A DNA stretch of 62,818 bases, counting the filler, from Asterionella formosa (taxonomy: Eukaryota): the NCBI GenBank assembly GCA_002256025.1. It is 16 parts of 16 records of this genome, joined end to end, with 100 filler letters (N's around TTAATTAATTAA, not from the genome) between each part and the next. Parts side by side here need not be neighbours in the genome. Positions count along the whole stretch, not along the records: positions 44,538 to 45,852 come from NKIB01003040.1; positions 45,953 to 47,267 come from NKIB01003041.1; positions 47,368 to 48,682 come from NKIB01003042.1; positions 48,783 to 50,097 come from NKIB01003043.1; positions 50,198 to 51,503 come from NKIB01003044.1; positions 51,604 to 52,919 come from NKIB01003045.1; positions 53,020 to 54,334 come from NKIB01003046.1; positions 54,435 to 55,748 come from NKIB01003048.1; 8 more parts are not named here. One strand, written 5' to 3'. The notes below the pieces were generated by a model. It worked only from the letters and a program-made list of their open reading frames with translations, was not told the origin of the DNA and ran no database searches. The stretch's first letter is position 1, and each line of letters starts with the position of its first letter. Below, one piece after another: positions 21,488 through 62,818 of this stretch. The position numbers were made by a program, and so were the translations under genes.

Positions 21488-21587
21488 NNNNNNNNNNNNN
21501 NNNNNNNNNNNNNNNNNNNNNNNNNNNNNNNTTAATTAATTAANNNNNNNNNNNNNNNNNNNNNNNNNNNNNNNNNNNNNNNNNNNN
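21488..21587. other. Artificial contig linker N44-TTAATTAATTAA-N44, first of 15 (others start at 43023, 44438, 45853, 47268, 48683, 50098, 51504, 52920, 54335, 55749, 57163, 58577, 59991, 61405)
   Basis: Identical 100-nt spacer carrying a six-frame stop oligo at every junction. Confidence 0.98.
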
Positions 21588-24841: not shown

Positions 24842-24961
24842 TACCGTTTCATTCGTACGACCTAGTGTGTACTCAGGCATGAGGAATTAAAATGATTATG
24901 TTAGGATTTGAACGTACGCAAATGAAAAATGTAACATTACAGAAGCGTGATGGAACAAAAA

Positions 24962-25041: not shown

Positions 25042-25661
25042 ACTATCTCTACAGGGTTCCTGCCAGCCGGGTCCCTCATGAAATAAATGGTTTTAATAGA
25101 ATATTTAAATACTGATTCAATCTTCAAATAGTTGGCGACGGGTACTGACTGGTACATGGTTTTACGGGTACCTGGTACTCTAACCTTCAGACCCACAGCA
25201 TTGAAGGCCACGCCTCCTCCAGAAACATACCGGGTCGTAGATATTTTGGAGTATGCATTAACCTGGAACTCATTCCCTATGTACTACCGGTAGCCTGGTA
25301 AGCAAGTCGAGAAACAGACGAGAACAAAGGAACGACAAGGTACCAGGTACCTGGTACCAGATACCAGGTTCTCGGAGTACTCCTCCGTTATCAGGTAAGC
25401 TACATACCGTATGGCTGTATGATCAAACTGCTCTCCTCAGCACCCTAATGATGTGAATCCGTGATTTTGAAAGTTGCAAGCACTTCTTGATGTAAATTTC
25501 TGCTATCGCATCATAGTTGTCCTTGCTAGTGGCTTCGCTTGATATCTGTGAGAGCCTGGCAGTAGCATCGACTGGACTCTCATCTCTCGTCATTGTGATA
25601 CCCGGACTGTTTAGGGAGAAAGAATCAATAACTACGTGTCTACTTTTCTGAGATTAATTCA

Positions 25662-27829: not shown

Positions 27830-27880
27830 GTATTCCGAGTACATATCAAAACACCACTTGGGCAATTCTTAGCGTTTTGC

Positions 27881-29770: not shown

Positions 29771-30558
29771 TTTGTTAGATTATTTGGTACCTGGTACTGG
29801 CACTCTTCGACGATGGCTCTGAAGGTGAGACAAACCTAGTCACATCACTGGTATTTGTATTGTGAGTACCAGGTACCTGGTACCGGTATTTTCCTGTTGT
29901 TTGGCTGCGTTGCAAAACTGCAGCATGCATGAGCGATGATATTCTTGCCTGGCTGTGGAGATTTCTTGGATTTCCTTCGGCCAGCCAAGACCGCATCATG
30001 GGATACTGTGTGACGTGGTTCTTTGGAGTTGAAGTACCTGGTACCCTGGTACTGTTCTCCCACCTTGCTGTAAAGAGAACTAATGATTTCTGGGATATAC
30101 TGATATTTTGGTATGCAAAGAACAGTCTACCGGTATATATTACTGATACATCGGATGGTCTCGCATGTAGGAGTATATACCGTATTTCAAACAGACTACC
30201 GGTAGCATGATACCCATGGTAGCAGGTGACCGGGAGCACGTACCGGTACTCCAGTGTTTTGTTTTGCCCCCCCCCCCTCCACACACTGAGCATATGCATG
30301 TGCAAAGTATGCAATACCGGTATGTAGTATATTGGATAACATTCCATGTATCGATCGTATGTACACCGGTATTTGGTTTTGTTCGTGCGTTACTCACAAC
30401 CACATTTCAAATATTAACAAACAAAGCAACCAGAATAAATCGTCTCTATCTGTGGTATATAGCGACCACTTTCAACCACCTCGTTCTGTAGATTTCCACA
30501 TCTCCCCATCCACACGCATCACCAAAAATACAGGTTTCTGTGCTTGACAATCAAGAGC

Positions 30559-41135: not shown

Positions 41136-43122
41136 TATGTTTGGTTTCCTCGAAGTTATTTGTCCTCAAAAAATTGCAATCACCAACCTCCGGCCTATTT
41201 TCGATTTCGTCGGAGGAGGTCCTAAAACTCACCAGGTGTGTAGGCACGGAAACGCCTGTTTGCAGTTACATGTATATCATATAATACCTGGCTGATGTTT
41301 TCCCTCCGGTATATGATCTCTATAATACCGGTAGTTGCTTCCAAACTGTCAAGGTATGCCCTTTCATGAAGTGAAAGCGCAGATAATTATCCGGCTAACA
41401 GCCCCTCCTATTTAAAAATTATTCCGAAAAGAGGTGCTTACTACCGGTATAATCTCGATATTGTACATGAGACTTCTCTTTTTGGCGCAGCGTTTTTCGT
41501 AGAATAATGACCCCTCCTGAAAAATGGCTCCATACCCCCAGTTTCCCCTGACCCTTTGACAACCAATACCAGTAGGCACAAGAAGAAGGATTTGACATCA
41601 GAGCAATGTCAATACATCATCAATTGCTCCCTTTGCAACATCAAAAGAAATGCTGATGGCAATGATGAATGGATACCCGCCTCATCATAACAAAATCCAG
41701 GTGTTCACCTTGGCTTGCAAACAAATAACCAAAAACTTTCATATCTGGAAGCATGTGATTGTTTCATTCAACAATGGTGGAAGTCAATTTCATGGAACCC
41801 ATTGATGCACATGACCAAAGGCAGACATTGTGGATGTCACAAGAAGTATGGTCAATCTTGTTGCTGGCTCTGAGGCCCAAGACTTGCCCATAGCTTGCTA
41901 TTTTGGTGATGCCAAATTTTTGTTTAAAGTGGCATTTCATTTGTTTTTGTTGCATTTTTAGTCAACAAATCTTGAATATCACATACCAGTGCGTCCAGAT
42001 AGAGGAAAACCATTATGCTGGCTAGCGAAATTCAAGTAAATTTAATAGCCCTAAATAATGCACATGCAAAGCTAGAAAGTGATATAGTCGCCTAAATATA
42101 GTAATCTTGCTGAAGCTCCTGTTGCCTGCATCACCTTGGATAGACTTGCTTATTATGAGCTTTAACGCAGGGCTTGCAAAAATGAGATGCTCAGCACTGT
42201 TTATAATTGCTGATCATGATGTAGATATACCAGAATAGAGGGAATTATAATAATAGCTATCTGTCCAGACATTTGGCTTCCACTTGACTTTTCAATCACT
42301 TGTCAAAACCTTTTTTGATGGTCCATGGCTGCTGCCCACCGAAATGTATTGTAGGAATCTGGAATCATTTTTCGTACCGGTACCCCGGGTACCGGTAGGA
42401 CAATCCAATGATACTGCCAATATGCATTGTAATGTTTCAAAGGCAGCAGCCAGTGAGGTGGTAAATAAAGTAAATTGTACCAGGGCAGATACCGGTACCT
42501 TTACCAGGGTACCAGGCATAGGTCGGTGATTTTATACTGCAGTTAACTGCGAGCCATTTTTTGGCTTCCAGCAGTATACCAGTTATACTTCTACTAACGT
42601 GAGGCAGTATGGTATTGGGGAGTCCCACCAGTTATTATTACAGTTACTTTATTCCAATCCAACAGTATACTGGTATACTGATACTGGTAAATATTACGTA
42701 CAGTATACTGATCAAGAACAATGCGAGCAATGCGCCCGTACGCGAAAATTGGGCCCTCCTAGGTTTACTTGATGATTATAAATTATCAAGATAGGGCTAT
42801 GCTTAGCATGGTTAATCATACAAGAAATAATGTAATCAGGTAATAGAAATGTTGTCCTTTCGAAGATATTGATACTATCTTATATCATAATACCTTCTGG
42901 TGACCTGAAATTGGTGGTTGTCATATAGGTAACAAGAAAAAAATTGCTATTGATGCTATCATAATATATTCAAAAGTAGTTCCCCCAGTGAGTTAATCTG
43001 TAAATTATCTTGAAAAAGTCTCNNNNNNNNNNNNNNNNNNNNNNNNNNNNNNNNNNNNNNNNNNNNTTAATTAATTAANNNNNNNNNNNNNNNNNNNNNN
43101 NNNNNNNNNNNNNNNNNNNNNN

Positions 43123-44437
43123 TTGACTGCAGATGGGACAATGATGGAGTGGGTGTATAAGGTGATGGAGATCAGAAGGAAGGCCAGTGCTGCATTGTTG
43201 AAGATGGCGAAGTTGATGCATGCCAGGATGACCAAGTCGTTGATGCCACAACTCTGAGCTGAGAATAGGAGATAAGCGGTGTGTGGTGGGCTGAAAGGAA
43301 ATCTGATTGAAATAAAAGAGATTATTTGATCTAGTCAAGGGTGCAATAACTGAGAAGCATCCAGAAGGGCTGTAAAAGCGAATGTATGCCTGATCAAGGT
43401 CCTGGCAGCAAATATCAAAGCCAGAGTAATTGTTGGATGTTTGAGTGCAGATGTGTTGTGGGGACAGAAGAGTCTCAGACAACTGAGGGCAGTAGTACAT
43501 GATGACAGGGGTGGTAGAACCATCAGAGAATTGGAGTGGATAATAACCATAACCTGGACAGAGCATACCCTGGACAGATGCATCAGCACCTAGAAGGTCA
43601 AAGGGAACAGAAAGGGGAGTATAGTTCTGGAGTAGTGATAAAGTGGATGTAGCACAGACATTTGCACCTAGGTCACATTGGTGAAGACCTGTGGAGTCAG
43701 AACAGAGGCGAGCAACATGAGCAATAGGGAGAATAGTGTTGGAATTGTTGGCAGAGGGGAGAAATGGAGGAACAAGGGAAAAACAATCAAAATAATCAGT
43801 AGGAAGAGGAGGTATGGTGAATGCATGGGTATACAGGCGATTTAAAGAGGGACAAGAAGGTGTCAGAGGAAGAGGAAGCGGCAACGACAGAGTCCTATTA
43901 GGAGGAGAGCTCTCTCTGACAGTCGTTCCGCAAACCCGTAGCCGTTCATCATTCCTGGAAGGGGAGAATGCCTGGCCCTAGAGAAAATTTGCTTCATAAA
44001 TATCATCTACATGGAGGTCAGGTAAGGAGTCTTCAGGATGGAGGTGTTGAAGATGACGGGCAATGGCCTGACGATGGTTCATGCTATGAAGAGTTCTCCA
44101 AGCAGTGGCAGCATTCTCAGCATGGGAGGGATTAGCAAGAATGTATGTCTGAAGAAGGGCAGCTTTGGCAAGGGAGGAACAGCGAGAAGCAGAATGGCCC
44201 CAAGTACCACAGGCAACACACTGGATGTCCTCACGTTGACGGAAAGGGTGGGAAGGGGTTGGGGTTGATGAGGGCCGCTGGTGAGAGGCATTGGTTTGCC
44301 GAGTGGAAGGATGAGGGGTGGTGATACGATGAGCAAGAGGTGTGAAAGTGCCAGTATGAGTGAGGGAGGGAGTATGAGGAGGATGCTGTGCCAGGACCAA
44401 TGCCAAATTTGGGATAAGGAGAGAAGGTGGGACAGGG
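43123..44437 (-). mobile_element. Ty1/copia LTR retrotransposon fragment: end of gag, protease, GAG-pre-integrase
   Basis: Zn knuckle CVACGTWGHSASRC, protease-like DLGAN, LLSPQ and LWHQRLGHPG. Confidence 0.88.
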
Positions 44438-44783
44438 NNNNNNNNNNNNNNNNNNNNNNNNNNNNNNNNNNNNNNNNNNNNTTAATTAATTAANNNNNNN
44501 NNNNNNNNNNNNNNNNNNNNNNNNNNNNNNNNNNNNNCATCACAGAATATAAATCAAGCAATCATAAAGTATGTTAATTAATATATATGTTTGTCGTTTA
44601 ATATATACAGTTAAAGTCAACAGTTAATATGATAGTATTATACAGTGGATAGGATCTAAGTATATGGATGCGTTGATATGTACATCACTATAATATGATT
44701 TGTGATATGGATTGATGCATATCACATACCGGTATCCTCAACAACCAGCCATCACATTCATTGTCGTGTCGTCTTTCCTTGTT

Positions 44784-45101
44784 TTAGCTATACCGGTATA
44801 TATGCTCAGATCCGTTCCATTGCAAATCTTCCTTCAATAGGTCAAACTCATCATCCTTGAGCATTTGCCTTCCAGTGGCATCGTAGGACTGAAGCGCATC
44901 CAGAAAGATACGCTCCTTTTCGGCTACTGTGAGACGAATGAGTTCCCCACCTTCCGGATCGACGACACAGTATTCCTCGTCAGGAATGCATTCTTCTTCC
45001 TGCAAGTTATTCTCAAAGAATCGTCCAGACTTGGCGTCGTAAGCGATTTCTCTCGTTCCGCACGTAATGGTGATCTTTTCGTCGCTTCCTTCTTCGGCCA
45101 T
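44784..45101 (-). pseudogene. PGRL1: Truncated PGRL1-like (PGR5-like 1) gene fragment inside repeat DNA
   Basis: EKERIFLDALQSY...MLKDDEFDLLKEDLQWNGS matches the PGRL1 N-terminal block. The ORF stops before the TM and Cys region. Confidence 0.75.
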
Positions 45102-45730
45102 TAAAAGTGGACCAGCAACACGACCAGCTGTTGTCGTTATCTTCCTTAAAGTTCGATGATCTTAAATTCATTTACCGGTACTGTCCCGCTGTAGTAGCAG
45201 CAGTCATAGACATGTGAGTTCCCCACTTTCCAGATCGACGACGCAGTATTCCTCGTCAGGACCACTTTCGTTTTTGCTTGATTCCTATGGGGAAAGATGG
45301 AAGTAAGATTTTTTTTACTCATAAATAGTTACTAACAAAATGGTTATTTGTTTTTAATCAAGTACAGCCATTTGCAAATAACCGGACGCTGGTGTCGTTT
45401 CTTTTGCTCCATCGACCGAGTCGGACAGAAGTGTCATGTTTATGTCAGTTCTTGTCACATCTCTTCGTTCCAACTCCTCTTATTCGAAACCGTTTGATAC
45501 GGCGGGATACAACCTTCCTCGCTGTTTCCCAAGTCCAATGGTACCACCAGAATGCAGCAAAGTTTTCTTCCCATTCATGATCCTTGGGACTTCGTCATGT
45601 TGTGGCGTTCTACCCCCTGCTCCATAACCACAGCCACCCTGTCGCGTTCCGTTGCAACGCACGATAATGGGTGATGTACCAAATTTTTCCGGTATAATAG
45701 AGGAGGGGGGGGGCAGCGCTTTGACTTTCA

Positions 45731-45852
45731 CAGCCTCTCTAAAGAGCTGCGACAGAAAATAATAGGGATAAACATAGTACCACCATAACCGTACATGGCA
45801 GCCTCTACAGAGCTGCGACAGAAAATAAAAGGGAAAAACATAGTACCACTAT
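45731..45852. repeat. Tandem repeat of about 68 bp at the contig end
   Basis: CAGCCTCT..AGAGCTGCGACAGAAAATAA...AAACATAGTACCAC starts at 45731 and again at 45799. Confidence 0.8.
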
Positions 45853-45952
45853 NNNNNNNNNNNNNNNNNNNNNNNNNNNNNNNNNNNNNNNNNNNNTTAA
45901 TTAATTAANNNNNNNNNNNNNNNNNNNNNNNNNNNNNNNNNNNNNNNNNNNN

Positions 45953-47267
45953 CAGCAGCGTTCCAGCGGGAATAAGTACAACTCTGTAAGTGGACATGCT
46001 TTTTGTATTGGCGGCTACACGAAAAAGATACTAGACTACAGAGTGAAATCTAAGGTCTGTAATGTGTGCGACAGGGCTATACGGTACAAGAAACCAATCA
46101 AGGAACATGTTTGTCCCAAGAATCATGTAACTGGTAGTTCAAAAGCAATGGAACCAGATGCTGGTGTAGAAATGATGATTGATGCAGTAATGAAAAACAA
46201 TGTTATCTACTCTACAATCATCTGTGATGATGATTCTATTATTCGAGCTGTTTCTAAGTGGTCCTATAATTATTGAAACTACAGTCATCCTTCCAATGGC
46301 CAAGAAAGGATTTAAAAAATCGGACAAAGGATGCCTTCTACTGACAGTACCCGAACCTACATTTCTGTCTGACCCATCCCACAGAGTACGGGTCCTTCTC
46401 CGCCCAGCTTTTATGAAATCCAATGGCCCAGTCTCCCTCAAGCGTCCCTCAAAAGCAGATTGTCTCCGGTTGAAAGTTTACTATGGCGCTTGGATTAAAA
46501 AAAACCGGAACCTCTCTCTGGCCGAATTTAGTATTTCATCCAAGGCACCAATCAACCATTTATTTGGCTGCCACGATTACTGCTCTGAGACAGCATGGTG
46601 CCCTGTAAAAGCAGGAAAAATGGTTAGTAACGGAAAATATCATGACAAGGAAAAGGAAAAAGATTTATACGAATGGTTAATGCTGCATGTTGCAACAAAA
46701 GTCGAAGGCGAAAAGCTACTATCGTTGCATCATCCCTTTGACACGCAGATTAATGAGGCAATGAACAATGCAGTGTCGCGACAATGTCCAAAAAACAAGG
46801 TGTTTGCGGGATCTGGAGGCCTTCAGTATCGAGTGGCTTCGGTTGCTGGGCAACACACACAAGGAGCAACACAATATACAAGGAATGTATACAAGCAATG
46901 TGGAATGCAGATGTCAGCACTGCAAGAATCCTTCTGGAGACAAAAAGAAAAGCGACAAAGTGACGACGGAGCCTATAAAGCACAATTCAAACGAAAGAGG
47001 AAACGAAGCGAAAAAATACATGCAGCACGATTCGAAACAGTCAAACAGGAAAGGCAAGATAACAAATCAGGTAAGACTTACGGTTCTGGTGTTGCGCTCA
47101 CCAGAAGGGAACATCAGGAAACAAGAAGGAAAGGAACAATTGTCTGCAATCATTGTGGCCGCAATGATCATCAAAGGAAAAGCAGCGCACTCTGTCCATT
47201 CAATGTACCGGCAGGCAAAGTGCCTGATCACACTGGTATGCGTATGATCAATGATGATCAGCTACCT
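45953..47267 (+). mobile_element. Frameshifted DNA transposase fragment (Mutator-like/Kolobok-type)
   Basis: C..C...H.CPKNH.GSSKAME, ICDDDS, DPSHRV, HLFGCHDYC...WC, TQINEAMN and a C-terminal CNHCGRNDHQRKSSALC. Frame changes near 46270-46310. Confidence 0.8.
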
Positions 47268-47367
47268 NNNNNNNNNNNNNNNNNNNNNNNNNNNNNNNNN
47301 NNNNNNNNNNNTTAATTAATTAANNNNNNNNNNNNNNNNNNNNNNNNNNNNNNNNNNNNNNNNNNNN

Positions 47368-48682
47368 ATTTTTTTGATAATGAAAACAACCATCAATTCT
47401 TTGATTACAATGACCATGATCAATTCTTTATCCTTTGTCATCTGGCTCTGGAGGCTGAAACGAAAGTTAAAAAGAGGAAGGCGAAATGGGAGCATGAGAG
47501 AATGTCATGGCATTCTCATGTCAAGAAGCTGTGTCATGAGGACGCTTTTGAAAAGACTTATAGAATGTCCCTTCGAGCCTTTAAGAAGTTGGTTTACTTT
47601 TTTACTTGCTGGAGAGTGATGTCATTGGAAATTTCTCCAAGTGCGGTACAGCTACTCCCATTTACCCAGAAATTGTGCTGGCCATTGGCATTCGATGGTT
47701 CCTATGGATGTAGCATAGGTTGATCAGAGGGTGTGTTGGTGCTATTGATGGTTTTTTAGCCACAATTAGTCGCCCCACGCTACGTGACTGTGGAAACAAT
47801 CCAGGAGCTTTTTATTCTGGACATTACATGACTTATGGTATCAATGTTCAGGCTATCTGTGATGTTGAGAGTAGATTTATATTTTTTGGGGTGATTGCTC
47901 CTGGACGATGCAGTGATCAAGTTGCATTTGAGAGAACTGCTCTACCCAACAAAACTGCATTATTTGATTCTGGTTTTTATCTTGTTGGTGATGCAGCATA
48001 TACATTGTCAGATGTCATGTTAGTTCCATTTGTTGGTTCTCAGCGTGATGACCAAACACAAGATACCTATAATTTCTTTCTTTCCCAGCTACGGATTAGG
48101 ATAGAGATGGCATTTGGTTTGTTACAGACAAAATGGGCTGTTCTAAAAAGAAACTTAACAACTGGCTTGGAAACAACTGCAAAAGTGCTTGAGGTATGTG
48201 CACGTTTGCACAATTATGTCATAGACGAAAATAAAGTTGATAAGGATATTTCTGGGTTACCTGGAAGTGATGAGGCAGATGACATCCAGGAGATTTTAGC
48301 TGAAATCACCCCAGTCTACAATTCTCCACTTGGTTGGGGATATTTGCCAACGGTTGAGAAATTGGATGTAATGCCTGGTACTTCTGTCATTCGAGATGTT
48401 ATTCTTGAAAGAATTGCTAACATGGGTTTGCAAAGACCTCCAGGTAATATTGAAAGAAAAAGGTTGGAATTACATGAATTAAATTTAATGTAGATTATAA
48501 TTGATTGTTGAAAAAAAATATTCATTTCAATGTGTCACCTTGAGACCAGAGATTGAAGACCTGATCACGCTTTCTTTTACACAATGCAATTTCTAAACGA
48601 GCTTGGACAATGTCAGAACTTGAAGAGTCATAATCTTTATTTTCGAGTTCTTCCAGTTCCTCCCGCGCAACTCTTAGTCGGA
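47368..48682 (+). mobile_element. PIF/Harbinger transposase fragment (DDE core 47720-48493, disrupted 5' part)
   Basis: GCVGAIDG, YGINVQAICD, LVGDAAY, YNFFLSQLRIRIEMAFGLL, CARLHNY. Upstream FEKTYRMS..AF..L lies in another frame. Confidence 0.92.
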
Positions 48683-48782
48683 NNNNNNNNNNNNNNNNNN
48701 NNNNNNNNNNNNNNNNNNNNNNNNNNTTAATTAATTAANNNNNNNNNNNNNNNNNNNNNNNNNNNNNNNNNNNNNNNNNNNN

Positions 48783-50097
48783 AATACGTCAGGGCTGCGG
48801 GCGTTTCCGTCCGGCTGCCGTCAGCAACTAGTCTCGCCTTACGCCGAAAGTTTTCGCCCATTTTGATGTCGAACACGAAATGACACCTTATCTTTTGGTA
48901 CCCTGGCGGAAGGTCTCCCTCTCGCTTTTCCCACTTTTCAAATGCCGGTCGCACGTTTTTCATTTCCTTGCAGATGGCGTCCCACCATAATGTGTTGCCA
49001 TTGGCTTTATCAATCGCTAACGCCTCTTCGACGGACTTCGGTATCCGTATACCGTATTTGTGAGTTCGCTGCCAATACTTAGACTTTACCTTTGCTAGGA
49101 CTCGGTCCCGTTTCTTTAGAAGAGTCGGCACCCACCACGCGAACGCTGCCTCGTCATCAATACGATTAGCAATTGAGTACTCCACCACCTGTATGGGGTA
49201 CGATTGCTTCATATCCTTAAGTGCGACCCAAGTGGTACTCCCGTCCCTCCATTGGCACAGGAGTTGCCACCCTTGAGTCGTCTGTCTCCGCCGCTTGACA
49301 CCGTTAGACATTGTGATGAACGCGTCCTCTTTGTCGAGTGCCGTCGCATTCCGCCTATGGTCGATAATGTCGTCGAGAAGTACGTGTCGTTCGCCCTCCT
49401 CGTCTATCTGTGAAAACAAATTCTGAGCAATAAGGTTAGAAGACAATGCCTCTGAGTGTCCGTCAAAGAACTCGACCTCATACTCTCTGGTGTCAAGCAA
49501 AGGATTTTCGTGAGCCTTGCCGATAGGTCTACCATCGGCGTCACGCAATCTCTTGGTGACTCTGCCAAACTGAACACCGTCGTTGTCATCTCCAGCGCCC
49601 CTCGCTATCGCTATCTCTTTGTTGAGGTATGTATCCTCGAAAATATCGGGCGTGAAAGTGTCATCGGCATCTGGTTTTTGGTGATCGCTCACAACATTGT
49701 TTATCTCTTCGCCAAATACTGAGTCGTCCTGCAGATCCGAGTATTCATCCCAATCCTGCAATTGTCGCTCCTCCTCGTCGCCTGCATTTTGGTGGTTGTC
49801 GTCACGCATTATTTCCTTTATCCTCTCGTTATACTCCTTGCATCTGTCGTTGACCTCGCTAGTTGTCAGTTCAAGGTGAGTGATACGCTGCACTGTAGTG
49901 CGTGAGATAACGCGACAAGCAATGGTTAGAATCCAATACGACATTAGGTTACCGACTCCGTGAGACACACCAAGCCAGCGCCCGAACATGTTTTCGCCAA
50001 CCCCTGCATTATCCTTGTACCACACCCAATCGTAGAACCCGAAATCCAAGTATTCGGATATGTCGGGTGTCTCGCCTGTGATTTGTTCTATAGGAGT
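48783..50097 (-). mobile_element. CoDi-type copia pol fragment: integrase C-terminus, chromodomain-like segment, start of RT
   Basis: GRWLGVSHGVG, NPLLDTREYEVEF, WQLLCQWRDGSTTW, HKYGIRIPKSVEEALAID..NGNTLWWDAICKEM, FDIK...RRKARLVA. Confidence 0.92.
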
Positions 50098-50363
50098 NNN
50101 NNNNNNNNNNNNNNNNNNNNNNNNNNNNNNNNNNNNNNNNNTTAATTAATTAANNNNNNNNNNNNNNNNNNNNNNNNNNNNNNNNNNNNNNNNNNNNTCC
50201 GACTCGGTCGATGGAGCAAAAGAAACGACACCAGCGTCCGGTTATTTGCAAATGGCTGTACTTGATTAAAAACAAATAACCATTTTGTTAGTAACTATTT
50301 ATGAGTAAATAAAAATTCTTACTTCCATCTTTCCCCATAGGAATCAAGCAAAAACGAAACTAG

Positions 50364-50560
50364 TCCTGACGAGGAATACTGTGTCGTCGGTGGGGAACTC
50401 ATTCGTCTCACAGTAGCCGAAAAGGAGCGTATCTTTCTGGACGCGCTTCAGTCCTACGATGCCACTGGAAGGCCAATGCTCAAGGATGACGAGTTTGACC
50501 CATTGAAGGAAGATTTGCAATGGAAGAACGGATCTGAGCATATACCGGTATATAGCTAAA
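50364..50560 (+). pseudogene. PGRL1: Second, shorter copy of the PGRL1-like fragment
   Basis: Translates PDEEYCVVGGELIRLTVAEKERIFLDALQSYDATGRPMLKDDEFDPLKEDLQWKNGSE. Flanks are the reverse complement of 44538-44800 and 45240-45425. Confidence 0.75.
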
Positions 50561-51603
50561 GCAAGGAAAGACGACACAACAATGAACGTGATGGCTGGTT
50601 GTTGAGGATACCGGTATGTGATATGCATCAATCCATCATGTCACAAATCATATTATAGTGATGTACATATCAACGCATCCGTATACTTAGATCCTATCCA
50701 CTGTATAATACTATCATATTAAGTGTTCACTTTAACTGTATACATTAAACGACAAACACATATATTAATTAACATACTTTATGATTGCTTGATTTATTTT
50801 CTATGATGTCTTGGTAACACTTGCCTACATATTTTATCGTATTTTATTGTCATTGTACTATTTTTACATGATCATATTTCGATCAAAATTATATCATAAA
50901 CATTTTATAAAATCATCATAGTTTTATGATCAATGTATCATAGCTATGTGATGTACTTTATTCAATATTACGTATCATACTTTGGTGATGTATGCATCGA
51001 TGTAACCCTATCATGATATCACATTATCATCTTGCCAATCATGATGAGATGATTGGGAAGCAACTGTATTATGCATCGTGCTACAGGGTATATTATTATA
51101 TCACGCAATTTAGTAGCGAAGTCACTCCGCCTGTAATGTACTAAAGTCGACAGTGCACATACCGGTACTCACATGCTAATCAGGTTTGAGGAAACGGACA
51201 GTGGTTCCAACGAGCGAATAATGATACCACGAGTACCAATTTTTTCAGCAAAAGAACTTGTCTCTCTATTGATGAGGATGACACGGACACCGACTTTTCC
51301 AGGAGCAAACAACAATGAAGAGAGCCAGGCCCCTTGTCGCTCTATTGATGTGAACAAAGATGCGGACAAGTTCAACAGTGAATACAAGAACAACATACCA
51401 ATGAAAACAAGTCGACAGTGTGTGTACGCACACGCCAAGCAGGTTTGAGGCAACCGACAATTCCAACAAGCAAATGACGATACAGATATCAAATTCTTCC
51501 TACNNNNNNNNNNNNNNNNNNNNNNNNNNNNNNNNNNNNNNNNNNNNTTAATTAATTAANNNNNNNNNNNNNNNNNNNNNNNNNNNNNNNNNNNNNNNNN
51601 NNN

Positions 51604-52919
51604 ACCCGGCCCTGGGAGGGAAATGGCAAGTAGCAACACAACTTAGTACTGTTTTGTGCTCAACAGTGAAGTGATTGCCACTACCTCCCCCACCGAACAA
51701 CGGGGAGGGGATAGGATTCTTGATGCTATGGGTGGCATGCACTGGAGTTCTGTCTCCTACCCCACTCCCACCCGAGTATTCACTATCGTGACTACTCGCG
51801 GGACCTCTCTCTAAGCCTGGCAGGTCGAGATGCGGTTCCGGGCACGGGGAGACCAAAAAAGTGCCGAAACAAACACGTGCTTCGACAAATTATAGGAATC
51901 GACGGAGTGTCGTTCCACCCGCAGCTCCTCGGGGGCTGAACCAAGAAATTGGGACAGCTGAATTTGTGCAGGAGACTGGAGATTCTGCCAGAACAGCGTT
52001 TGTGGGCCCTTTCCAAGGGGGGACACAAGGAGAGGAGGAAAAGGAACCAGGAGGAGAAGGAAGCATGGGGAGACCACAGGGTGGTGACCAGAGAGTAGGG
52101 GAGAACAGGGGACCACATGGGGAGTTTCCAACACGGCTCCCGGCGCGGCTCATACGACAGGATGCAGTCCGAAATGACCAAGTCCAGTTGTGTGTGTGGG
52201 GGGAAGAGGGCAGTCTCACTATATTCTGGGAACGCCTCTCTTACCTCTGTCGTGCATCCCCCTCACGGGATGGAAACTTGGCCGTAGTTGAGGGGCCCTC
52301 TCCCTTGATGTGCTGGCGGAATCTATGTATTTCGTCCACACAAGGTGACCAATGTCCATCCACTCACCGAAATGTGGTTAAACTAGGTGGAAGCATGGGG
52401 CGAAGAAGATTGGGTACAAATGCACCACCAACAACAATGGGTGCGAAAAGAAAAAAAAAAAATAGGAAAAAAGAAATAAAAATTGAAAAAATAAAGTTAA
52501 AAAATAAAATAAAAAATAAAAAAAGAGGGGAAGAAAAGGAACCCGGCCCTGGGAGGGAAATGGCAAGTAGCAACACAACTTAGTACTGTTTTGTGCTCAA
52601 CAGTGAAGTGATTGCCACTACCTCCCCCACCGAACAACGGGGAGGGGATAGGATTCTTGATGCTATGGGCGGCATGCACTGGAGTTCTGTCTCCTACCCC
52701 ACTCCCACCTGAGTATTCACTATCGTGACTACTCACGGGACCTCTCTCTAAGCCTGGCAGGTCGAGATGCGGTTCCGGGCACGGGGAGACCAAAAAAAGT
52801 GCCGAAACAAACACGTGCTTCGACAAATTATAGGAATCGACGGAGTGTCGTTCCACCCGCAGCTCCTCGGGGGCTGAACCAAGAAATTGGGACAGCTGAA
52901 TTTGTGCAGGAGACTGGAG
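51604..52919. repeat. Direct repeat with 937-bp period (51604-51981 repeated at 52541-52919), A-rich tract just before the second copy
   Basis: Near-identical copies of about 378 bp at both ends of the contig; A-rich run at 52446-52540. Confidence 0.9.
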
Positions 52920-54434
52920 NNNNNNNNNNNNNNNNNNNNNNNNNNNNNNNNNNNNNNNNNNNNTTAATTAATTAANNNNNNNNNNNNNNNNNNNNNNNNN
53001 NNNNNNNNNNNNNNNNNNNTCCAATTGTATCTCAATAATTCAAGTGCTTCCAGTACTCCACTGTCCCACCTGTCATCCACCACTGATGATTTTGATGTAG
53101 TAGATGATTCCAAATGAAGGAAAAATAATATAGATTACATGTCAATGCTAGTATGATTGATTAGAAAGCTAGGCTATCACTCTAGCTAATTGGAAAAACG
53201 GAAGGTTTTTCTATTCTAGAATACCAATATACAAATGCATAGTCATATTAGTTTTTGACGGGCAGTTCAGATAGGCGTAGTACTAGCTGCGTAAGAATAT
53301 GGAATTTACAGGAAACGTGGTGCTACAATTATTCAAAAAACTACAGGTACTGACTACCGGTAGTTAAGCGACTTCCTTTGATCCTCCGCCTCCTCCTTCG
53401 GTTGCCTTTTCTCGTTTTCTTCCTGTATAGGTATGTTTAACTGGTATGTACGGAAGTGTAGGAGCGGTCGTCATCTGATGAGTCGCTATCGTTGCTCATT
53501 TCATCAGGCAGATACATATGGATGAGTACCCTGGTACCAGGTATGCTACCACAAACCACGCAGTGCATCCCATCATTTTCTTATTGGTAGTAATCGGGTT
53601 TATTAATATAACGATACACATGTAATAACATTCTAGTGCTATTTCTATTCGCTAAAAGTTTCGGTGTGAGATTTGACTATTCTAGGATTTGGTCGATGCG
53701 GTGGGAAAAAATATGAAAAATTCGACTATTTATAAAAAAATTCTCAACCAAGTGACATGTATTGATATTTTCAACTGCAATTGGCTTTGGTATTTGGTCG
53801 ATGCGGTGGCGATGCTCTAAAATAATAATAATGTATAACATTTTTACATGCCCATCACTCTGGTAAGTACAACACAGTCCACTTCTACATATTTATATCA
53901 AAAGATAAACAACCAGTACTAACACATTCATTCTCATACCAGTTTCCATCTATAGGATTAGTCATACTGTGTGCTACAGTTACATGCCCAGCCCTAGAAG
54001 GGCTGGATGCTCTATAGGGATGACGCCTAGAGGTATCTTCCCTTTTCCCTAACCCAAACCCTTAACCCTAATAGTGCATACGTAATCTCCAAACTGACAT
54101 GGTACTCAACCAGCACATGACTTGCTATTTTGACAGTAACTGCTGCAGTTGCAAATCAGTGGTGGGCAAACAAAAATGCCCTCTAGTGTTGCAATATTAC
54201 ATGCTTTTGTTGGAACTGGCCCTGTAAAATTATTCTTTCCAAAAGATAATACAACTGTCAAGAAAGTAAAATTTTAGAACAAATGGTCAAGAAATAGAAG
54301 TTTCAGATAAGCAAAACTTACTCAATAAAGACATNNNNNNNNNNNNNNNNNNNNNNNNNNNNNNNNNNNNNNNNNNNNTTAATTAATTAANNNNNNNNNN
54401 NNNNNNNNNNNNNNNNNNNNNNNNNNNNNNNNNN

Positions 54435-55748
54435 CATGAACCTCTTTATGGTTTCTTGAAGACATTGTACTACTTGATAACTGTTGTCGTTGTCTTCCTT
54501 AAAGTTCGATGATCTTAAATTCATTTACTGTCCCGCTGCAGTAGCAGTAGTCATAGACATAGTATGGTGTTCTATTGCTTGCTTATTACTCCGACTACCG
54601 GTACCACTTTTCAGTTTCACGATCATACAATCCTAAAACTATGATGATTTACTATCCCACTGCAGTAGCAACAGACCTGAAAATATGGTGTTCTATTGGT
54701 TTTTGATTTTACGATTATAAGATCCTAAAACTATGATGATTTACTGTTCGAATGCAGTAGCAACAGTCATGAACATATGGTGTTCTTTTGGTTTTTAGTT
54801 TTACGATCATACGATCCTAAAACTATGATGATTTACTGTTCGAATGCAGTAGCAACAGTCATGAACATATGGTGTTCTGTTGCTAGTTTACTACTCCGAC
54901 TACCCCCAGTATATCACTTACTACCTGCTACTGGTACTCTGTATATATATATGATATATTGTTATTGTCATACCAGTATGATGTACCGGTACAAAAAATG
55001 AAGAGCTCCCGCCCAAAAAAGGGGCTTAAACAATTTGCTACCAAAACCTTGGCGGTTATGACTTACACCAATTGAATGGTCTAAATAATTAGTTTCAACG
55101 GACGTAGAAAATATCGATGCAAACAAATTTCAGAAATAATACCGGTACACGTAGTCGTGAAAAACAATGGACATATAGTGCATTGAGTATTTTCGAATTA
55201 TGTATATGCGAGTATGATCATCCCAACCATATCAGATGTTCCATATCGAGAGCGCCTTTGAATTTTATAAATGTATAACACTTCATATATATATATATTT
55301 TTACAAATTTTATTACTATATTCATGGCATATATATTTTTGAAATCGTTCTGTCATGTTAACAAACAATGCCTGCTGCTTCATGAAAAGATACGTCATAG
55401 TAAAGCACATGACAAGAAAAGAAAGTTTATGCAATGCATAACGAAAAACATTGTGACTTCGACACATTGCGCCTTCGAAGGATGGATAATGTTTAAGGTA
55501 ATGAAGCCATCAATGTGGTACTTGGATGACAATCGTTGGGAGACAGGCAGCACAACAACAAATTGTTAACTAAACGCAGCCACATTTCCTTTTTTCTCAG
55601 TTGATTCAACAGCTCGTTTCGCTTGTTGGGGAGCACCAATGTAAAACAAAACCAAACCAAATTGCGTAAGTGCTCTTGTCGCTCGTTGGACCTATTCACT
55701 TCTGTTGGAACAAAACTAACAAAACGTTTATATTCTCTCAAAGTTAAG
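54435..55748. repeat. Dispersed repeat family, copy 1, with 92-bp minisatellite
   Basis: Unit ATATGGTGTTC...TTTTACGATCATACGATCCTAAAACTATGATGATTTACTG...GTAGCAACAGTCATGAAC at 54683, 54775 and 54867. The remainder aligns with 57485-58416. Confidence 0.9.
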
Positions 55749-55848
55749 NNNNNNNNNNNNNNNNNNNNNNNNNNNNNNNNNNNNNNNNNNNNTTAATTAA
55801 TTAANNNNNNNNNNNNNNNNNNNNNNNNNNNNNNNNNNNNNNNNNNNN

Positions 55849-56122
55849 ATCCAGGATAGTAATCATCTAAAATGTTGGTCCGAAGATTCTTTTTGTTTCT
55901 TGTTCTTCCAGCAGCTTCTTTCTTTTTCGATTGTTCCAGACAAAATCCCTCGTACCAAGTTGGGACAATGTACTCCTGAGGAGGATAACGTACTCCTGCT
56001 GTTGTTCGTGCAGCTGCTGCAGTTGCTGTTGCTATTTTTCTTGCTGTTTCTTCTGCTTCTGTTGTTTCTTCAGCTTCTACTTTCACTTCTACTGCGTTTG
56101 TTCTTTTAAATCTGTCTGTCAT
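55849..56122 (-). CDS. 5' fragment of a hypothetical protein (truncated by contig end)
   Basis: ATG at 56122, open to the contig edge, low-complexity E/T/A N-terminus. Divergent from the mutarotase start. Confidence 0.4.
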
Positions 56123-57011
56123 GATGATTACGATGATAATGCTGAGAAGGGTGTCAATGACGTGGAAAAGAGAGAGAGAGGGAGAGAGTGAGTGAGTGAG
56201 AGCGAGAGAGCGAGAGATGACAACGACAAGGGTGACGTTTGCTGAAGAACCAATAAAAAATGTGGGAAGAAAGCATTACCGCAAATTGCGGTAAATTTCC
56301 TGAAACTAAAGATTTAGTTTTCTTTATCCGATATTAAATTGTTTATTTAAGCAAAATGACCGCACCTTGCCGGTATACGGACCGATGAGACATAAAAATA
56401 GTTCCTTGCTTTAAATTTATTCATGTATATATATGTAAAATGTGGTTAGGCTGGCTCTACTGGACAATGGTGAGTCATACACTTGCTGGATTGTGTTGAT
56501 GTGCTTGAGTACCGGTACCTGGTACCAGGTACCTGATACTTGGCACTCCCTACCCCCTTTACCTGGTACCAGTTACCAGATACCTATTTACATACCGGTG
56601 TACATTTCATACCGGGTATATGCTTATAATTTTATACTGATATACCGTTATACCGTTATACATTGGCACCAGTATCTCTGTACGTTTTTATCATAGGTAC
56701 CTGGTAACTTGGTTTAATACTGTGTACATGATGTTTTGTATCCACATCCTCTGCAACTACGACCGGTACTCAGTACAGTACCAGGTATTCCTTACCCAGG
56801 TTGCTAAAAAGGAAAGAAGAATCTTTGCCAAGCACACTACGTAGTATCAGCCAGCAAAGGAAAGTGATGGACTAAAATAAAATACCGCTATAAAATCTTG
56901 ATCGTCTTCGATTGCCATATTCTTTCAATCCTTCTTCTTCTTCTTCTTCTTCTTCTTCTTCTTTTTCTTACTATTATTAATTATATTATTATAACCTCTG
57001 ACTGCAGATCA

Positions 57012-57162
57012 ATGAGGAGTACTACCATCACAGAACTCCCTCTGGTCACAGCCAACGATGGCGCTATTATTCGTTCCTTTGAATTGTCCAATAGCAGTGG
57101 GATTGTTGTTGTCCTTTCCTCGGTCGGTGCTTCCATTCAATCCATCCTAGTTCCTAATTATT
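57012..57162 (+). CDS. galM: 5' fragment of aldose 1-epimerase (mutarotase)
   Basis: FELSNSSGIVVVLSSVGASIQSILVP matches the mutarotase N-terminal L.N..G..V....GA.I.S..VP pattern. Truncated by the linker. Confidence 0.7.
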
Positions 57163-57262
57163 NNNNNNNNNNNNNNNNNNNNNNNNNNNNNNNNNNNNNN
57201 NNNNNNTTAATTAATTAANNNNNNNNNNNNNNNNNNNNNNNNNNNNNNNNNNNNNNNNNNNN

Positions 57263-58576
57263 TATGCCAGAACATATGGTGTTCTGTTGCTCGCTTATTA
57301 CTCCGACTATTGGTTTTTAGTTTTACGATCATACAATCCTAGAACTATGATGATTTATTGTCCCACGGTAGCTAGTAGCAACAGTCCTGAATATATGGTA
57401 TTCCATTGGTTTCTAGTTTTACGATCATACGATCCTAAAATTATGATGATTTACTGTCCCACTGCAGTAGCAACAGTCATGAACATATGGTGTTCTTTTG
57501 GATCATAATTTTACGATCATACAATCCTAAAACTATGATGATTTACTGTCCCACTGCAGTAGCAACAGTCCTGAACATATGGTGTTCTGTTGCTAGTTTA
57601 CCGGTACTACTCCGACTACCCCCAGTATATCACTTACTACCTGCTACTGGTACCCTGTATGTATAAATGATACATTGTTATTGTCATATGATGTACCGGT
57701 ACACATGAAGAGCTCCCGCCCAAAAAAGGGGCATTTGAACGGTCTAAATAATTAGTTTCAACGGACGTAGAAAATATCGATGCAAACAAATTTCAGAGAT
57801 AATACCGGTACACGTAGTCGTGGAAAACAATGGACATATAGTGCATTGAGTATTTTCGAATTATGTATATGCGAGTATGGCCATCTCAACCATATCAGAT
57901 GTTCCATATCGAGAGCGCCTTTGAATTTTATAAATGTCCAACGCTATATATATATATATATATTTACAAATTTTATTACTATATTCATGGCCAATATATT
58001 TTTCAAATCGTTCTGTCATGTTTACAAACAATGCCTGCTGCTTCATGAAAAGATACGTCGTAGTAAAGCACATGACAAGAAAAGAAATTTTATGCAATAC
58101 ATAACGAAAAACATTGTGACTTCGACACATTGCGCCTTCGAAGGATGGAGAATGTTTAAGGTAATATAATGAAGCCATCAATGTGGTACTTGGATGACAA
58201 TCGTTGGGAGACAGGCAGCACAACAACAAATTGTTAACTAAACGCAGCCACATTTCCTTTTTTCTCAGTTGATTCAACAGCTCGTTTCGCTTGTTGGGGA
58301 GCACCAATGTAAAACAAAACCAAACCAAATTGCGTAAGTGCTCTTGTCGCTCGTTGGACCTATTCACTTCTGTTGGAACAAAGCTGACAAAACTTTTACC
58401 TTCTCTCAAAGTTAAGATGACAAAAATGTACCGGTAAGTTTTATTCAACAACATTGGATACCCGAAACTTACTTATTCAAGAATTTGGCTTACTGACAAG
58501 TTACTATAACAGACTTATGCATCAGTTGCATTGATTTGTGGTAAGTGAAGCAAGAGGATACGATGGAATTGCGTGT
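57263..58576. repeat. Dispersed repeat family, copy 2, with 92-bp minisatellite
   Basis: Units at 57393, 57485 and 57577; colinear with 54775-55748. Confidence 0.9.
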
Positions 58577-58676
58577 NNNNNNNNNNNNNNNNNNNNNNNN
58601 NNNNNNNNNNNNNNNNNNNNTTAATTAATTAANNNNNNNNNNNNNNNNNNNNNNNNNNNNNNNNNNNNNNNNNNNN

Positions 58677-59990
58677 TGCCAATGGAGGGAGCAGGTGGGT
58701 CAACCTCCTGGTCCAGATAGGAGAATTGTTCATCGGGACAGTCGCAATCATCGGAGTCAGCAAGAGGGGAGAAAGGGTTGGTTGATTGGGAAGGAAAAAC
58801 CACTGGATGGGCTCGACGGGCTGCGGCGGAGGCAGGGGGTGGCGTGGAAGTGGGTGGAGGCCGGGGGGAAGTGGGGGTGACAGCTGCTGCATAGGAGGAG
58901 GGAGCAGGACTGGAAGGGACAAGAGGGGGAATAATGTCCCGCACAAGGCGGCCGGAGCCAAGGACGCCAGTAGAGGGAGAAATACCCGGGCGAGACGGCG
59001 GAGCGGTGGCTGAGACCGAGGGAGTAGGCTTAGGAATGATGGAGAAGCGAGGAGTGACTAGGGAACACTGGGCGAACTCATGGGCATTGCAGCGATGTAC
59101 TGGGCACTTGAACGAGAGCATGGAGCAAGCTTGAGCATGCGAGAATGAAGTGTTACCCAGCCAAGCGGTGGGAGAGAGAGTTGAGGAGGGGGAAGCGGCA
59201 GGGCGACCAGGATGACCCATCTTAGTAGTGTCGATACCAGGCATGTCGGTGTAGGTTTTTGCTGATGCTACAAGGGTGGCAAGGGTCATCGTAGTGATGT
59301 CTTTTTGGTGGAGGAGGTACGGTTGTACAAAGGAGTGGAAAGCCGGACCAATAGCCAGGAGGAAACAATAACAGATGAATGGTTCTGTAAAGTGTTGACC
59401 CGCAATAGCAGCCTGAGAGACTAGTTCACGGGTGCGAAAGGAGAGTTGGAGAGGGGTTTCCTTGTCTTTCTGGAAGAGGGTATCCCAGGCGGTCAGTAAA
59501 TTAATTAACGAGTGTGAGTGGGAGACGCGATAATATTGTATTACTTCGTGTAACAGGGCAATGCCATTATGTAGAATGTCCTCTTGGCTCCGCCAGTGGT
59601 CGGAGGCCTGGTCATGGAGGGCAACAATTAAGACACTATATAAGGATTGAGAGAGGGCGGTATAGAAAGGGTCAGAAGGCGACGCCAGGTGTATGTGTTG
59701 CCAGACAGGAGTACTCAGATGGGTAGTAATCATGGTGAACCACTCGTTGAATTTGGTTGGATCTCCATTAAAACGGGGTAGGTGGATGGAGAGTTCCTTT
59801 TTAGCATCGGCGAATGCAAGGCTGGTGACAAGGGCCGCTTGGACATCAGCTTTTGTGGCAATAGAGGATGCCAGGGAATCTGGAAGGTGGGATGAGACAA
59901 TTGTAAAAGAGTCGTCCGCCGCAGACTGAAGGGGGAGGGGCGGAGGGGGAGAGGAAGCGTCCGGCTGAGGGGAGGACCGAGGAGAATGAA
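58677..59990 (-). mobile_element. LTR retrotransposon gag-like fragment, copy 1
   Basis: Long ORF with NGIALLHEV, Q..KETP, LLAIGPAF, a knuckle-like CPVHRCNAHEFAQC and a Pro/Ser-rich tail. Confidence 0.7.
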
Positions 59991-60591
59991 NNNNNNNNNN
60001 NNNNNNNNNNNNNNNNNNNNNNNNNNNNNNNNNNTTAATTAATTAANNNNNNNNNNNNNNNNNNNNNNNNNNNNNNNNNNNNNNNNNNNNGGCTCCCTTG
60101 TTGAGCACAGATACAACCGGCAGTAAGGCAGGACCCCTCTTGATGGCGGTCATGGCTTCGCATGTTATCTTTTTGATTGTTTTGAAGTTGGCCTTTTATC
60201 AGTAACAATTTCAAAATGGCGAGTTAGTGCAATAAATGCGGTCCATTCGTATGCATAATTCATGATAGAAATATATTGTTGTGAAGAAGTAGTCTAGGTC
60301 AAGTGCAATATCGTTTGGGTAGTCTAGTCGTTATCCAGTGGAATATGTTTCCTTCCTTTTCTCTTTTGCTGTATAATGCCTGCCAGCCTGTTGGAGTACT
60401 ACACAATTCATGAAGATTAAAAACGAGCCCTGTTGAAAAATGCTAAGACTGTATGTATATCCCTACCAAGAAAACCTAGTTGATGTGATTCTATAAAAAA
60501 CAAACATTCTCGAAAGCGAAGCAATCGTCTCGTCGCTTTGCAAGTAACAAACAACACCTTGGGAGTATATGATAAGAGTCTTGAAATAAAC

Positions 60592-61377
60592 TCAAAAGAA
60601 AGCAGTAATTCCCAAGAGAACAATGCTCAAAGCAGAGGCAAGGGCAAATTGGTTGGCGGCCGAAGTAGATGGGGACTTGGTGGGAGGCTTGGTTGGAGCG
60701 GGAGAAACAATTGCAGGAGCGGTAGGTGCCACTGGAGCAGCAACCACAGGGGCGGTAGATGCCTCTGGTGCACATGCACATTGTTGAACAGCGAACTGAA
60801 GTAGAGTACAGTTGTCTGGGGAAACGAACCCACTTAGAGCACCTTCCTGAAGCAAGTAGCAACCAATATCTCCAATAATTGGAAGGGACAAAGTGATATT
60901 CGCAGTGACGGTTTTACCCGCTCCGCAAATAGAGCAAGCAGGATAGCCAGGATTGGGAGGTAAAGTAGGAGCAACAATTGAAGAAGGAGCAACAACAACT
61001 GGGGAAGGAGCGGCAACTGGAGCGGGAGAAACAACTGGAGCGGGAGAAACAACTGGAGCGGGAGAAACAACTGGAGCAGCAACCGCAGGAGCGGTAGGTG
61101 CCGCTGGTGCGCATGCACAGGGCCCAACTAAGTTAACAAGAAATGAACATTGAGTTGCATCAATATACCCATCCAGACCACCGAGCTCAAGTTGACCACA
61201 AGTAGCGTTTCTCGCAAAAAGATTCAACGTGACGTCTGGGAGAGTTACCATTAGACCCTCGCCGCAAATATAGCAAGTTGGATTGGTGTTATTTGTAGAG
61301 TCCGCGGCGTGAACAGCAGATGGACAGTAGTTCACCGTCAACATAAAGAAAGCAGCAGAAAAGGAGAATCTCGCCAT
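60592..61377 (-). CDS. Secreted, probably GPI-anchored cell-surface protein with two Cys-rich modules and Pro/Ala/Val linkers
   Basis: Signal peptide; two C..CG.G..V....TC/GC..L...G..G....C..L.....CACAP modules; (SPAPVV)n from an 18-bp tandem repeat at about 61014-61078; hydrophobic C-terminus. Confidence 0.85.
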   Translation of the reverse strand: MARFSFSAAFFMLTVNYCPSAVHAADSTNNTNPTCYICGEGLMVTLPDVTLNLFARNATCGQLELGGLDGYIDATQCSFLVNLVGPCACAPAAPTAPAVAAPVVSPAPVVSPAPVVSPAPVAAPSPVVVAPSSIVAPTLPPNPGYPACSICGAGKTVTANITLSLPIIGDIGCYLLQEGALSGFVSPDNCTLLQFAVQQCACAPEASTAPVVAAPVAPTAPAIVSPAPTKPPTKSPSTSAANQFALASALSIVLLGITAFF

Positions 61378-61504
61378 GTTGTTCTCAGTGTGTTTTGTTT
61401 TAAGNNNNNNNNNNNNNNNNNNNNNNNNNNNNNNNNNNNNNNNNNNNNTTAATTAATTAANNNNNNNNNNNNNNNNNNNNNNNNNNNNNNNNNNNNNNNN
61501 NNNN

Positions 61505-62818
61505 TGCCAATGGAGGGAGCAGGTGGGTCAACCTCCTGGTCCAGGTAGGAGAATTGTTCATCGGGACAGTCGCAATCATCGGAGTCAGCAAGAGGGGAGA
61601 AAGGGTTGGTTGATTGGGAAGGAAAAACCACGGGATGGGCTCGACGGGCTGCGGCGGAGGCAGGGGGTGGCGTGGAAGTGGGCGGAGGCCGGGGGGAAGT
61701 GGGGGCGACAGCTGCTGCATAGGAGGAGGGAGCAGGACTGGAAGGGACAAGAGGGGGAAGAATGTCCCGCACAAGGCGGCCGGAGCCAAGGACACCAGTA
61801 GAGGGAGAAATACCCGGGCGAGACGGCGGAGCCGTGGCTGAGACCGAGGGAGTAGGCTTAGGAATGATGGAGAAGCGAGGAGTGACTAGGGAACACTGGG
61901 CGAACTCATGGGCATTGCAGCGATGTACTGGGCACTTGAACGAGAGCATGGAGCGGGCTTGAGCATGCGAGAATGAAGTGTTACCCAGCCAAGCGGTGGG
62001 AGAGAGAGTGGAGGAGGGGGAAGCGGCAGGGCGACCAGGATGACCCATCTTAGTAGTGTCGAAACCAGGCATGTCGGTGTAGGTTTTTGCTGATGCTACA
62101 AGGGTGACAAGGGTCATCGTAGTGATGTCTTTTTGGTGGAGGAGGTACGGTTGTACAAAGGAGTGGAAAGCCGGACCAAGAGCCAGGAGGAAACGATAAC
62201 AGATGAATGGTTCTGTAAAGTGTTGACCCGCAACTGCAGCCTGAGAGACTAGTTCCCGGGTGCGAAAGGAGAGTTGGAGAGGGGTTTCCTTGTCTTTCTG
62301 GAAGAGGGTATCCCAGGCGGTCAGTAAATTAATTAACGAGTATGAGTGGGAGACGCGATAATATTGTATTACTTCGTGTAACAGGGCAATGCCATTATGT
62401 AGAATGTCCTCTCGGCTTCGCCAGTGGTCAGAGGCCTGGTCATGGAGGGCAACAATTAAGACACTATATAAGGATTGAGAAAGGGCGGTATAGGAAGGGT
62501 CAGAAGGCGACGCCAGGTGTATGTGTCGCCAGACAGGAGTACTCAGACGGGTAGTAATCATGGTGAACCACTCGTTGAATTTGGTTGGATCTCCATTAAA
62601 ACGGGGTAGGTGGATGGAGAGTTCCTTTTTAGCATCAGCAAATGCAAGGCTGGTGACAAGGGCCGCTTGGACATCCGCTTTTGTGGCAATCGAGGATGCC
62701 AGGGAATCTGGAAGGTGGGATGAGACAATTGTAAAAGAGTCGTCCGCCGCAGACTGAAGGGGGAGGGGCGGAGGGGGAGAGGAAGCGTCCGGCTGAGGGG
62801 AGGACCGAGGAGAATGAA
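61505..62818 (-). mobile_element. LTR retrotransposon gag-like fragment, copy 2
   Basis: Same length and boundaries as 58677-59990, with scattered substitutions. Confidence 0.7.

Follow-up and report, generated by a model that had tools for sequence, protein, structure and literature searches.

Short palindromic units bounded on both sides by TA recur along a 62,818-base stretch of the genome of the diatom Asterionella formosa (assembly GCA_002256025.1; hereafter the window, meaning the whole stretch that was analysed). We conclude, with a probability of roughly 0.7, that these units are the excision footprints of a cut-and-paste transposon that targets TA. The units come in two size classes, with either a CCGG or a CCWGG core between the TAs, and where filled and empty copies of the same site can be compared, the filled copy differs from the empty one by the core and a duplicated TA.

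The window consists of 16 pieces joined by 15 artificial linkers of the form N44-TTAATTAATTAA-N44, the first at 21488-21587 and the last at 61405-61504. Two of the pieces are large contigs of about 21.4 kb (1-21487 and 21588-43022), which carry ordinary housekeeping genes and long open frames, and the other fourteen are short, 1,306 to 1,316 bp each (43123 to 62818). The short contigs appear to be size-sorted, and neighbourhood or distance across the linkers has no biological meaning. The region of the filled-versus-empty comparisons, 45173-57688, lies entirely within these short unplaced contigs of about 1.3 kb.

An earlier note on this DNA had listed four pairs of filled and empty sites, and re-reading the sequence confirmed the first three precisely as described. 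At 45173-45180, tcatt-TA-CCGG-TA-ctgtccc faces tcatt-TA-ctgtccc at 54526-54527, an exact 6-bp gap. The second filled site, ctagtt-TA-CCGG-TA-ctactcc at 57599-57606, has a single TA at 54889-54890 as its empty partner. The third, tgtca-TA-CCAG-TA-tgatg at 54971-54978, is matched by an empty TA at 57687-57688, and the flanks of the two copies are identical at 26 of 26 bases. In the fourth pair, TA-CCGG-TA at 51160-51167 corresponds to one TA at 51425-51426, both belonging to a diverged duplication of the same contig; its 6-bp gap is present, but the local duplication is only 78% identical, which makes this pair weaker than the others. Also borne out, once the two contigs are read in homologous orientation, is the observation that CCGG sits at different TAs of one TA run: AGC(TA)2-CCGG-(TA)3TGC in one contig and AGC(TA)3-CCGG-(TA)2TGC in the other, the unit at 44791-44798 having its partner at 50543-50550 one TA further along.

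A systematic search, in which every footprint-like unit was collapsed and its 12-nt flanks were sought across the whole window with at most 4 mismatches, recovered pairs 1 to 3 and gave no additional clean filled/empty pair in the window. None would be expected, because the window holds little duplicated DNA. The sequence differences at pairs 1 to 3 therefore stand as reported, but the status of "paralogous copies" given to them does not: the comparisons are between separate contigs of about 1.3 kb, so the copies may be alleles, haplotigs or dispersed repeats.

Two of the sites, 45173 and 57599, can be polarised, with repeat copies in the short contigs serving as outgroups. The site at 45173 is filled in one of seven copies in the window, and the six others have a single TA (54526-54527 and five copies of a 92-bp repeat). 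The site at 57599 is filled in one of four copies and empty at 54889-54890, at about 54584 and at about 57296. The filled state is derived at both sites, and these events are insertions, not deletions. The earlier note had asked whether the filled state might instead be ancestral, with empty sites produced by deletion between two TAs. We regard this as extremely improbable. A direct repeat of 2 bp (TA) or 4 bp (GTAC, at a further site at 30241 described below) could mediate such a loss, and at 30241 and 54971 either polarity is possible, but where outgroups exist the empty state is found in 6 of 7 copies at one site and 3 of 4 at the other, so that an ancestral filled state would require many parallel losses. 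The 92-bp repeat is itself tandem, with three copies each at 54608-54882 and 57307-57592 in two homologous short contigs, and a segment related to it also lies inside the extra 285 bp of contig 44538-45852.

The same insertions dominate one class of length difference between homologous contigs. The homologous pairs in the window include 44538-45425 and 50198-50808, which lie on opposite strands with 95.9% identity, and 54563-55748 and 57275-58416, with 94.3% identity. Across 3,502 aligned bases of homologous pairs there are 124 mismatches and 13 gaps. Four of the 13 gaps are 6 bp long, and all four start with TACC: TACCGG twice, TACCAG, and TACCAC, the last adjoining a TACCGG in a complex arrangement. 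The indel class that the earlier note had proposed to test is thus enriched in the aligned pairs of the window. The remaining gaps, of 1 to 5 bp, 44 bp and 285 bp, are of other kinds. The 285-bp segment (44951-45235), present in one of two homologous contigs, has a flanking direct repeat of about 46 bp (GAGTTCCCCAC...CTCGTCAGG) and looks like a tandem segmental duplication plus an added piece rather than a TA-flanked element. The 44-bp insertion (55025-55068), likewise present in one of two homologous contigs, is without TA flanks or inverted ends.

Comparison with other assemblies extends the filled/empty difference to single-copy DNA. A non-coding open frame spans one of the promoter clusters (29778-30389), and its translation, searched against a protein collection, returned a single protein cluster (P0121; two public sources, 4 members). 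The match to window positions 29778-30364 is split over two frames, with agreement at 164 of 170 residues in one and 31 of 32 in the other. The sole gap, LEY[RY]V, corresponds to TACCGGTA at 30241-30248 collapsed to one TA, and all eight other perfect units within the span are kept. A C/G homopolymer of about 11 bases, at approximately 30269-30287, differs in length between the window and the P0121 assembly and shifts the open frame. A second open reading frame (ORF) variant, from another assembly (P0123), keeps all three of its CCGG units (42375-42497). Altogether, 11 of 12 units are kept and the twelfth, at 30241, is a clean empty TA. Reproduction of 11 units in independent assemblies rules out the artefact of this assembly that the earlier note had considered, while a clean filled/empty polymorphism in a single-copy region shows that the process was recently active. 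A scan of metagenome contigs yielded just two matches, a relative at 49% identity (L001) and 1 kb from a related species (L002); the motif is in neither, and their non-coding DNA is too diverged for polarisation.

The units are far more abundant than chance predicts. TACCGGTA occurs 43 times in the window against 0.30 expected, with a maximum of 3 in any shuffle, and TACCWGGTA occurs 25 times against 0.23 expected, making these, at about 140-fold, the most over-represented words in the window DNA. The three commonest TA-NNNN-TA words are CCGG (43), CCAG/CTGG (13) and CAGG/CCTG (6), and among TA-NNNNN-TA words CCWGG (25) stands alone. Other 4-bp palindromes between two TAs, counted as a control, number 0 to 4 each.

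The composition of the cores bears on how they were made. The middle base of CCWGG is A in 12 units and T in 13, and TACCATGGTA is absent from a word count of the window; this near equality and this absence fit one middle base contributed by either end. A model in which each end loses its third base independently predicts about 3.5 copies of TACCATGGTA where none is seen; we set this model aside, and the absence weakly favours a single shared middle position. Scars of one end only, TACCATA (3) and TATGGTA (5), are at chance level, estimated at about 8 per 7-mer pair in this window. Among the variants that differ from the CCGG core by a single change, CCAG/CTGG is the most frequent (13, against 2 to 6 in other classes), an excess that agrees with the earlier suggestion of CpG decay, which on the sequence is plausible. 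However, the CCAG unit at 54971 lies in flanks identical to those of its empty copy and may therefore be a primary joining product.

Many units stand head to tail. A cluster of eight perfect units in a divergent promoter region (4444-4572) contains one array of four CCAGG units and one of CCAGG-CCAGG-CCGG, and a cluster of nine perfect units between divergently oriented genes (29788-30322) contains CCAGG-CCTGG-CCGG at 29867-29888. Two further arrays, CCAGG-CCTGG at 25341-25356 and CCGG-CCTGG-CCAGG at 56510-56531, have decayed units next to them. By middle base, the five arrays read AAAA, AA-CCGG, AT, AT-CCGG and CCGG-TA, and none of the five has CCGG beside CCGG. Separate events account better than replication slippage for arrays in which A, T and CCGG units are mixed. 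Slippage as the main route of array growth, starting from one scar and copying a 7-bp unit (GGTACCW), would account for the four identical CCAGG units and for the period-7 arrays given by Tandem Repeats Finder, and it suits the observation that CCWGG units nearly always adjoin another unit. We nevertheless consider it unlikely: slippage copies units unchanged, whereas 3 of the 7 neighbouring W-W pairs differ (the other 4 are the same) and 3 of the 5 arrays end in CCGG, and isolated insertions are not explained by slippage at all. The three-unit array pattern had no match in viral contigs. Two contigs of bacterial metagenome-assembled genomes (L003 and L004) that did match it look like chance or coding 7-mer repeats.

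The sequences flanking the two core classes are distinct. CCWGG units lie in a GG-TA-CC context: of their 50 flanks, 43 have G at position -1 and 35 have it at -2. The flanks of CCGG are near background, with T scarce at -1 (6 of 86 against 26% expected, p ~1e-5). GG-TA-CC may be a preferred target that is regenerated by each scar, in which case arrays would feed themselves; equally possible, in place of a target preference, are two element families or context-dependent repair.

The position of the units relative to genes is strongly biased. Open frames of at least 150 aa hold 19 of the 68 perfect units, and 17 of those 19 are in two Pfam-less frames, 4102-4824 and 29775-30389, each between divergently oriented genes; a search for relatives of the ORF at 4105-4824 found none. 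With these two promoter frames set aside, long frames contain 2 of the 68 units against 43% of TAs (p ~5e-14). Outside ORFs, 25,568 bases contain 1,997 TAs, of which 122 are part of perfect units. The units are excluded from coding DNA and concentrated in bidirectional promoters.

A concentration in divergent promoter regions is also what would be seen if the palindromes were selected transcription-factor sites, abundant through function and not through mutational bias. In Phytophthora infestans, TACATGTA (4,150 promoter matches in PMC3597505) and TACCGGTA are reported among the over-represented palindromes of promoters and are read as binding sites (PMC3597505, PMC3520976). TACATGTA is described upstream of 12,070 Phytophthora genes, with an origin as Tc1 scars considered and dismissed (PMC3520976). 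For the diatom units we hold this explanation to be very unlikely. Selection does not explain an origin by exact, TA-duplicating 6-bp insertion, nor does it explain units within tandem repeats and within the 935-bp element described below, and any function could be secondary. The Phytophthora motifs (M93/M94 and motif-1) share the TA-NNNN-TA architecture and the promoter location in another stramenopile, and M94 is the same octamer, TACCGGTA. They differ in being read as binding sites, and filled-versus-empty evidence is not reported in the passages covered. Given the diatom evidence, we suggest that the dismissal of a Tc1-scar origin in Phytophthora deserves a direct test.

Elements of the Tc1/mariner group duplicate the TA at which they insert. 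The cuts that release them lie 2 to 3 nt in from the ends, and scars of this kind remain; Sleeping Beauty and impala leave C(A/T)G scars. The Tc1 footprint in C. elegans is given as taCATGta (PMC3520976). On the mechanism we propose, TACCGGTA, TACCAGGTA and TACCTGGTA, together with their decayed forms, would have been left as scars by a DNA transposon of the cut-and-paste kind whose insertion target is TA. Entry of the element would duplicate the TA. On exit, staggered cuts would leave the first two or three bases of the ends (CC or CCA; GG or TGG) on the flanks, and end joining would then seal the break with a gain of 6 bp (TA to TA-CCGG-TA) or 7 bp (TA to TA-CCWGG-TA). In the 7-bp case the middle base would come from the third position of either end; with ends CCA and TGG, the third bases would compete for one middle position, or both would be lost to give CCGG. 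A scar would carry two TAs, with GG-TA-CC an apparently favoured target, and repeated visits could build the head-to-tail arrays.

Like Tc1/mariner footprints, the units have a duplicated TA, a few presumed end bases trapped between the TAs, a palindromic product and a middle base that can be either of two complementary letters. They differ in the CCGG or CCWGG core, in the scale of their excess, in the share of non-ORF TAs that they occupy, in the head-to-tail arrays and in having no known transposase. Excision footprints are already known as a kind; it is the density and the tandem arrays that are unusual here. In the literature covered, which excluded subscription journals, we found no description of these words as scars in diatoms. 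It is possible, although we hold it only tentatively, that one process driven by a transposon inserts TA-CC(W)GG-TA into open non-coding DNA, and that its rate, counted per TA, is of the order of point substitution (about 3 events per about 195 TAs, a TA number estimated for the aligned pairs from the TA density of the window, against 124 substitutions per 3,502 bases). Its scars would seed GG-TA-CC, letting arrays grow, and the same process could be the origin of the abundant TA-NNNN-TA promoter motifs in other stramenopiles such as Phytophthora, where it would supply raw material for new binding sites.

A candidate for the kind of element that would leave such scars lies on the second large contig. 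The window was scanned for TA-flanked inverted ends of any terminus (spacing of 60 to 5,000 bp, an exact seed of 6 nt and 13 or more matches out of 16), and two rows resulted. One, 25341-29882, is no element but a pair of palindromic arrays, oriented towards each other, with two genes between them. The other, at 23905-24843 on the plus strand, is the only true one: a candidate non-autonomous TA-flanked element with 935 bp between the TAs. Its ends read TA-CCACCTTAAAACAGAGAGTC... and ...GACTCTCAGTTTTTAGGTGG-TA, that is, CCACC...GGTGG, and its arms are 33 nt long and 88% complementary. Of its three copies of GTTGACTCTCAGT, one is internal and the other two lie in subterminal position near the right end. 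The target, ACGG-TA-CCGT, is a 10-bp palindrome that resembles the GG-TA-CC context of the CCWGG units. No Pfam match or recognisable coding capacity was found in the ORFs of the element, and its terminus has no match in viral contigs. Within the element, 24233-24262 is a decayed array of footprint-like units (GCGGTACCAGCTACCGGTGCCAGGTACCAGGG); the element was itself hit, or it is a carrier of such units.

With terminal inverted repeats, a TA duplication and no transposase gene, the candidate has the make-up of a Stowaway-like element, subject to a 6-base extension of its repeat that is taken up below. It resembles Stowaway-like miniature inverted-repeat transposable elements (MITEs) in its flanking TAs, inverted-repeat ends, repeated subterminal motifs and lack of recognisable coding capacity. 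Unlike typical MITEs, it is larger, is present in the window as a single copy and has no empty-site control.

Several observations weigh against excision footprints as the explanation. The inverted repeat of the 935-bp candidate can be read 6 bases further out (ACGGTACC...), which removes the TA duplication. In the window only its own two arms match it, with no further dispersed copies, and this single copy is the one that lacks an empty-site control. No transposase domain of the Tc1/mariner/IS630 type was found in 199 of the 204 window ORFs of at least 70 aa. The sole DNA-transposase fragment in the window is of the PIF/Harbinger type, which does not target TA (a DDE_Tnp_4 open frame at 47714-48493 on the plus strand of a short unplaced contig, E 1.6e-26). 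No excision product was observed, and the filled/empty polymorphism at 30241 could be read in either direction. Finally, one family with one repair outcome does not explain both the difference in context between CCGG and CCWGG and the lack of CCGG-CCGG arrays, so that a single-family picture may be too simple. The earlier attribution of the units to an active family with CC(A)...(T)GG ends is accordingly upheld in part. The TA-duplicating insertion is there and one candidate at 23905-24843 has the predicted CCA...TGG ends, but neither the autonomous transposase among the window ORFs nor excision itself has been seen.

Some of the same observations would suit an origin that needs no resident element, in which a transposase-like nuclease, domesticated or free, would make staggered breaks at TA that are then filled and joined to give the units, or in which the units would be templated insertions made during break repair. 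In its 62.8 kb the window offers no transposase and a single candidate element, compared with 68 scars or more, and the unexplained difference between CCGG and CCWGG contexts adds to this. We judge such an origin quite unlikely, however: filling of staggered cuts copies host bases and cannot make CCGG beside unrelated flanks, and the sole TA-flanked element has exactly the ends that the excision of a transposon would predict.

Other features of the window concern its repeats and its sources. Contigs 58677-59990 and 61505-62818 align without gaps over their whole length at 97.8% identity (29 mismatches); they probably represent one locus, as two alleles or as two copies, and perfect footprint units occur in neither. 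Segments 51604-51981 and 52541-52919 (99.2% identity) are direct repeats at both ends of one 1,316-bp contig and could be a long-terminal-repeat-like structure or reflect a tandem or circular sequence whose assembly overlaps itself. A GAG-pre-integrase open frame at 43075-43977 on the minus strand is a weak match, just below the Pfam cutoff (E 5.4e-06), and suggests a Copia-type retroelement fragment. For a conserved protein of the window, the best relatives that carry a name come from diatoms. The window, or part of it, is present in 20 of 24 listed public runs from 14 studies, mostly labelled as freshwater or lake-water metagenomes.

Transposon scars are usually held to be rare curiosities. 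In this diatom DNA they are apparently a major source of small insertions, making up all four 6-bp indels and about 6% of non-coding TAs, with a concentration in bidirectional promoters. If this holds genome-wide, a strong and sequence-specific mutational bias would be shaping diatom regulatory DNA, and motif-discovery studies could take scars for binding sites. It would also reopen the oomycete question of whether TACATGTA and TACCGGTA are scars, binding sites or co-opted scars.

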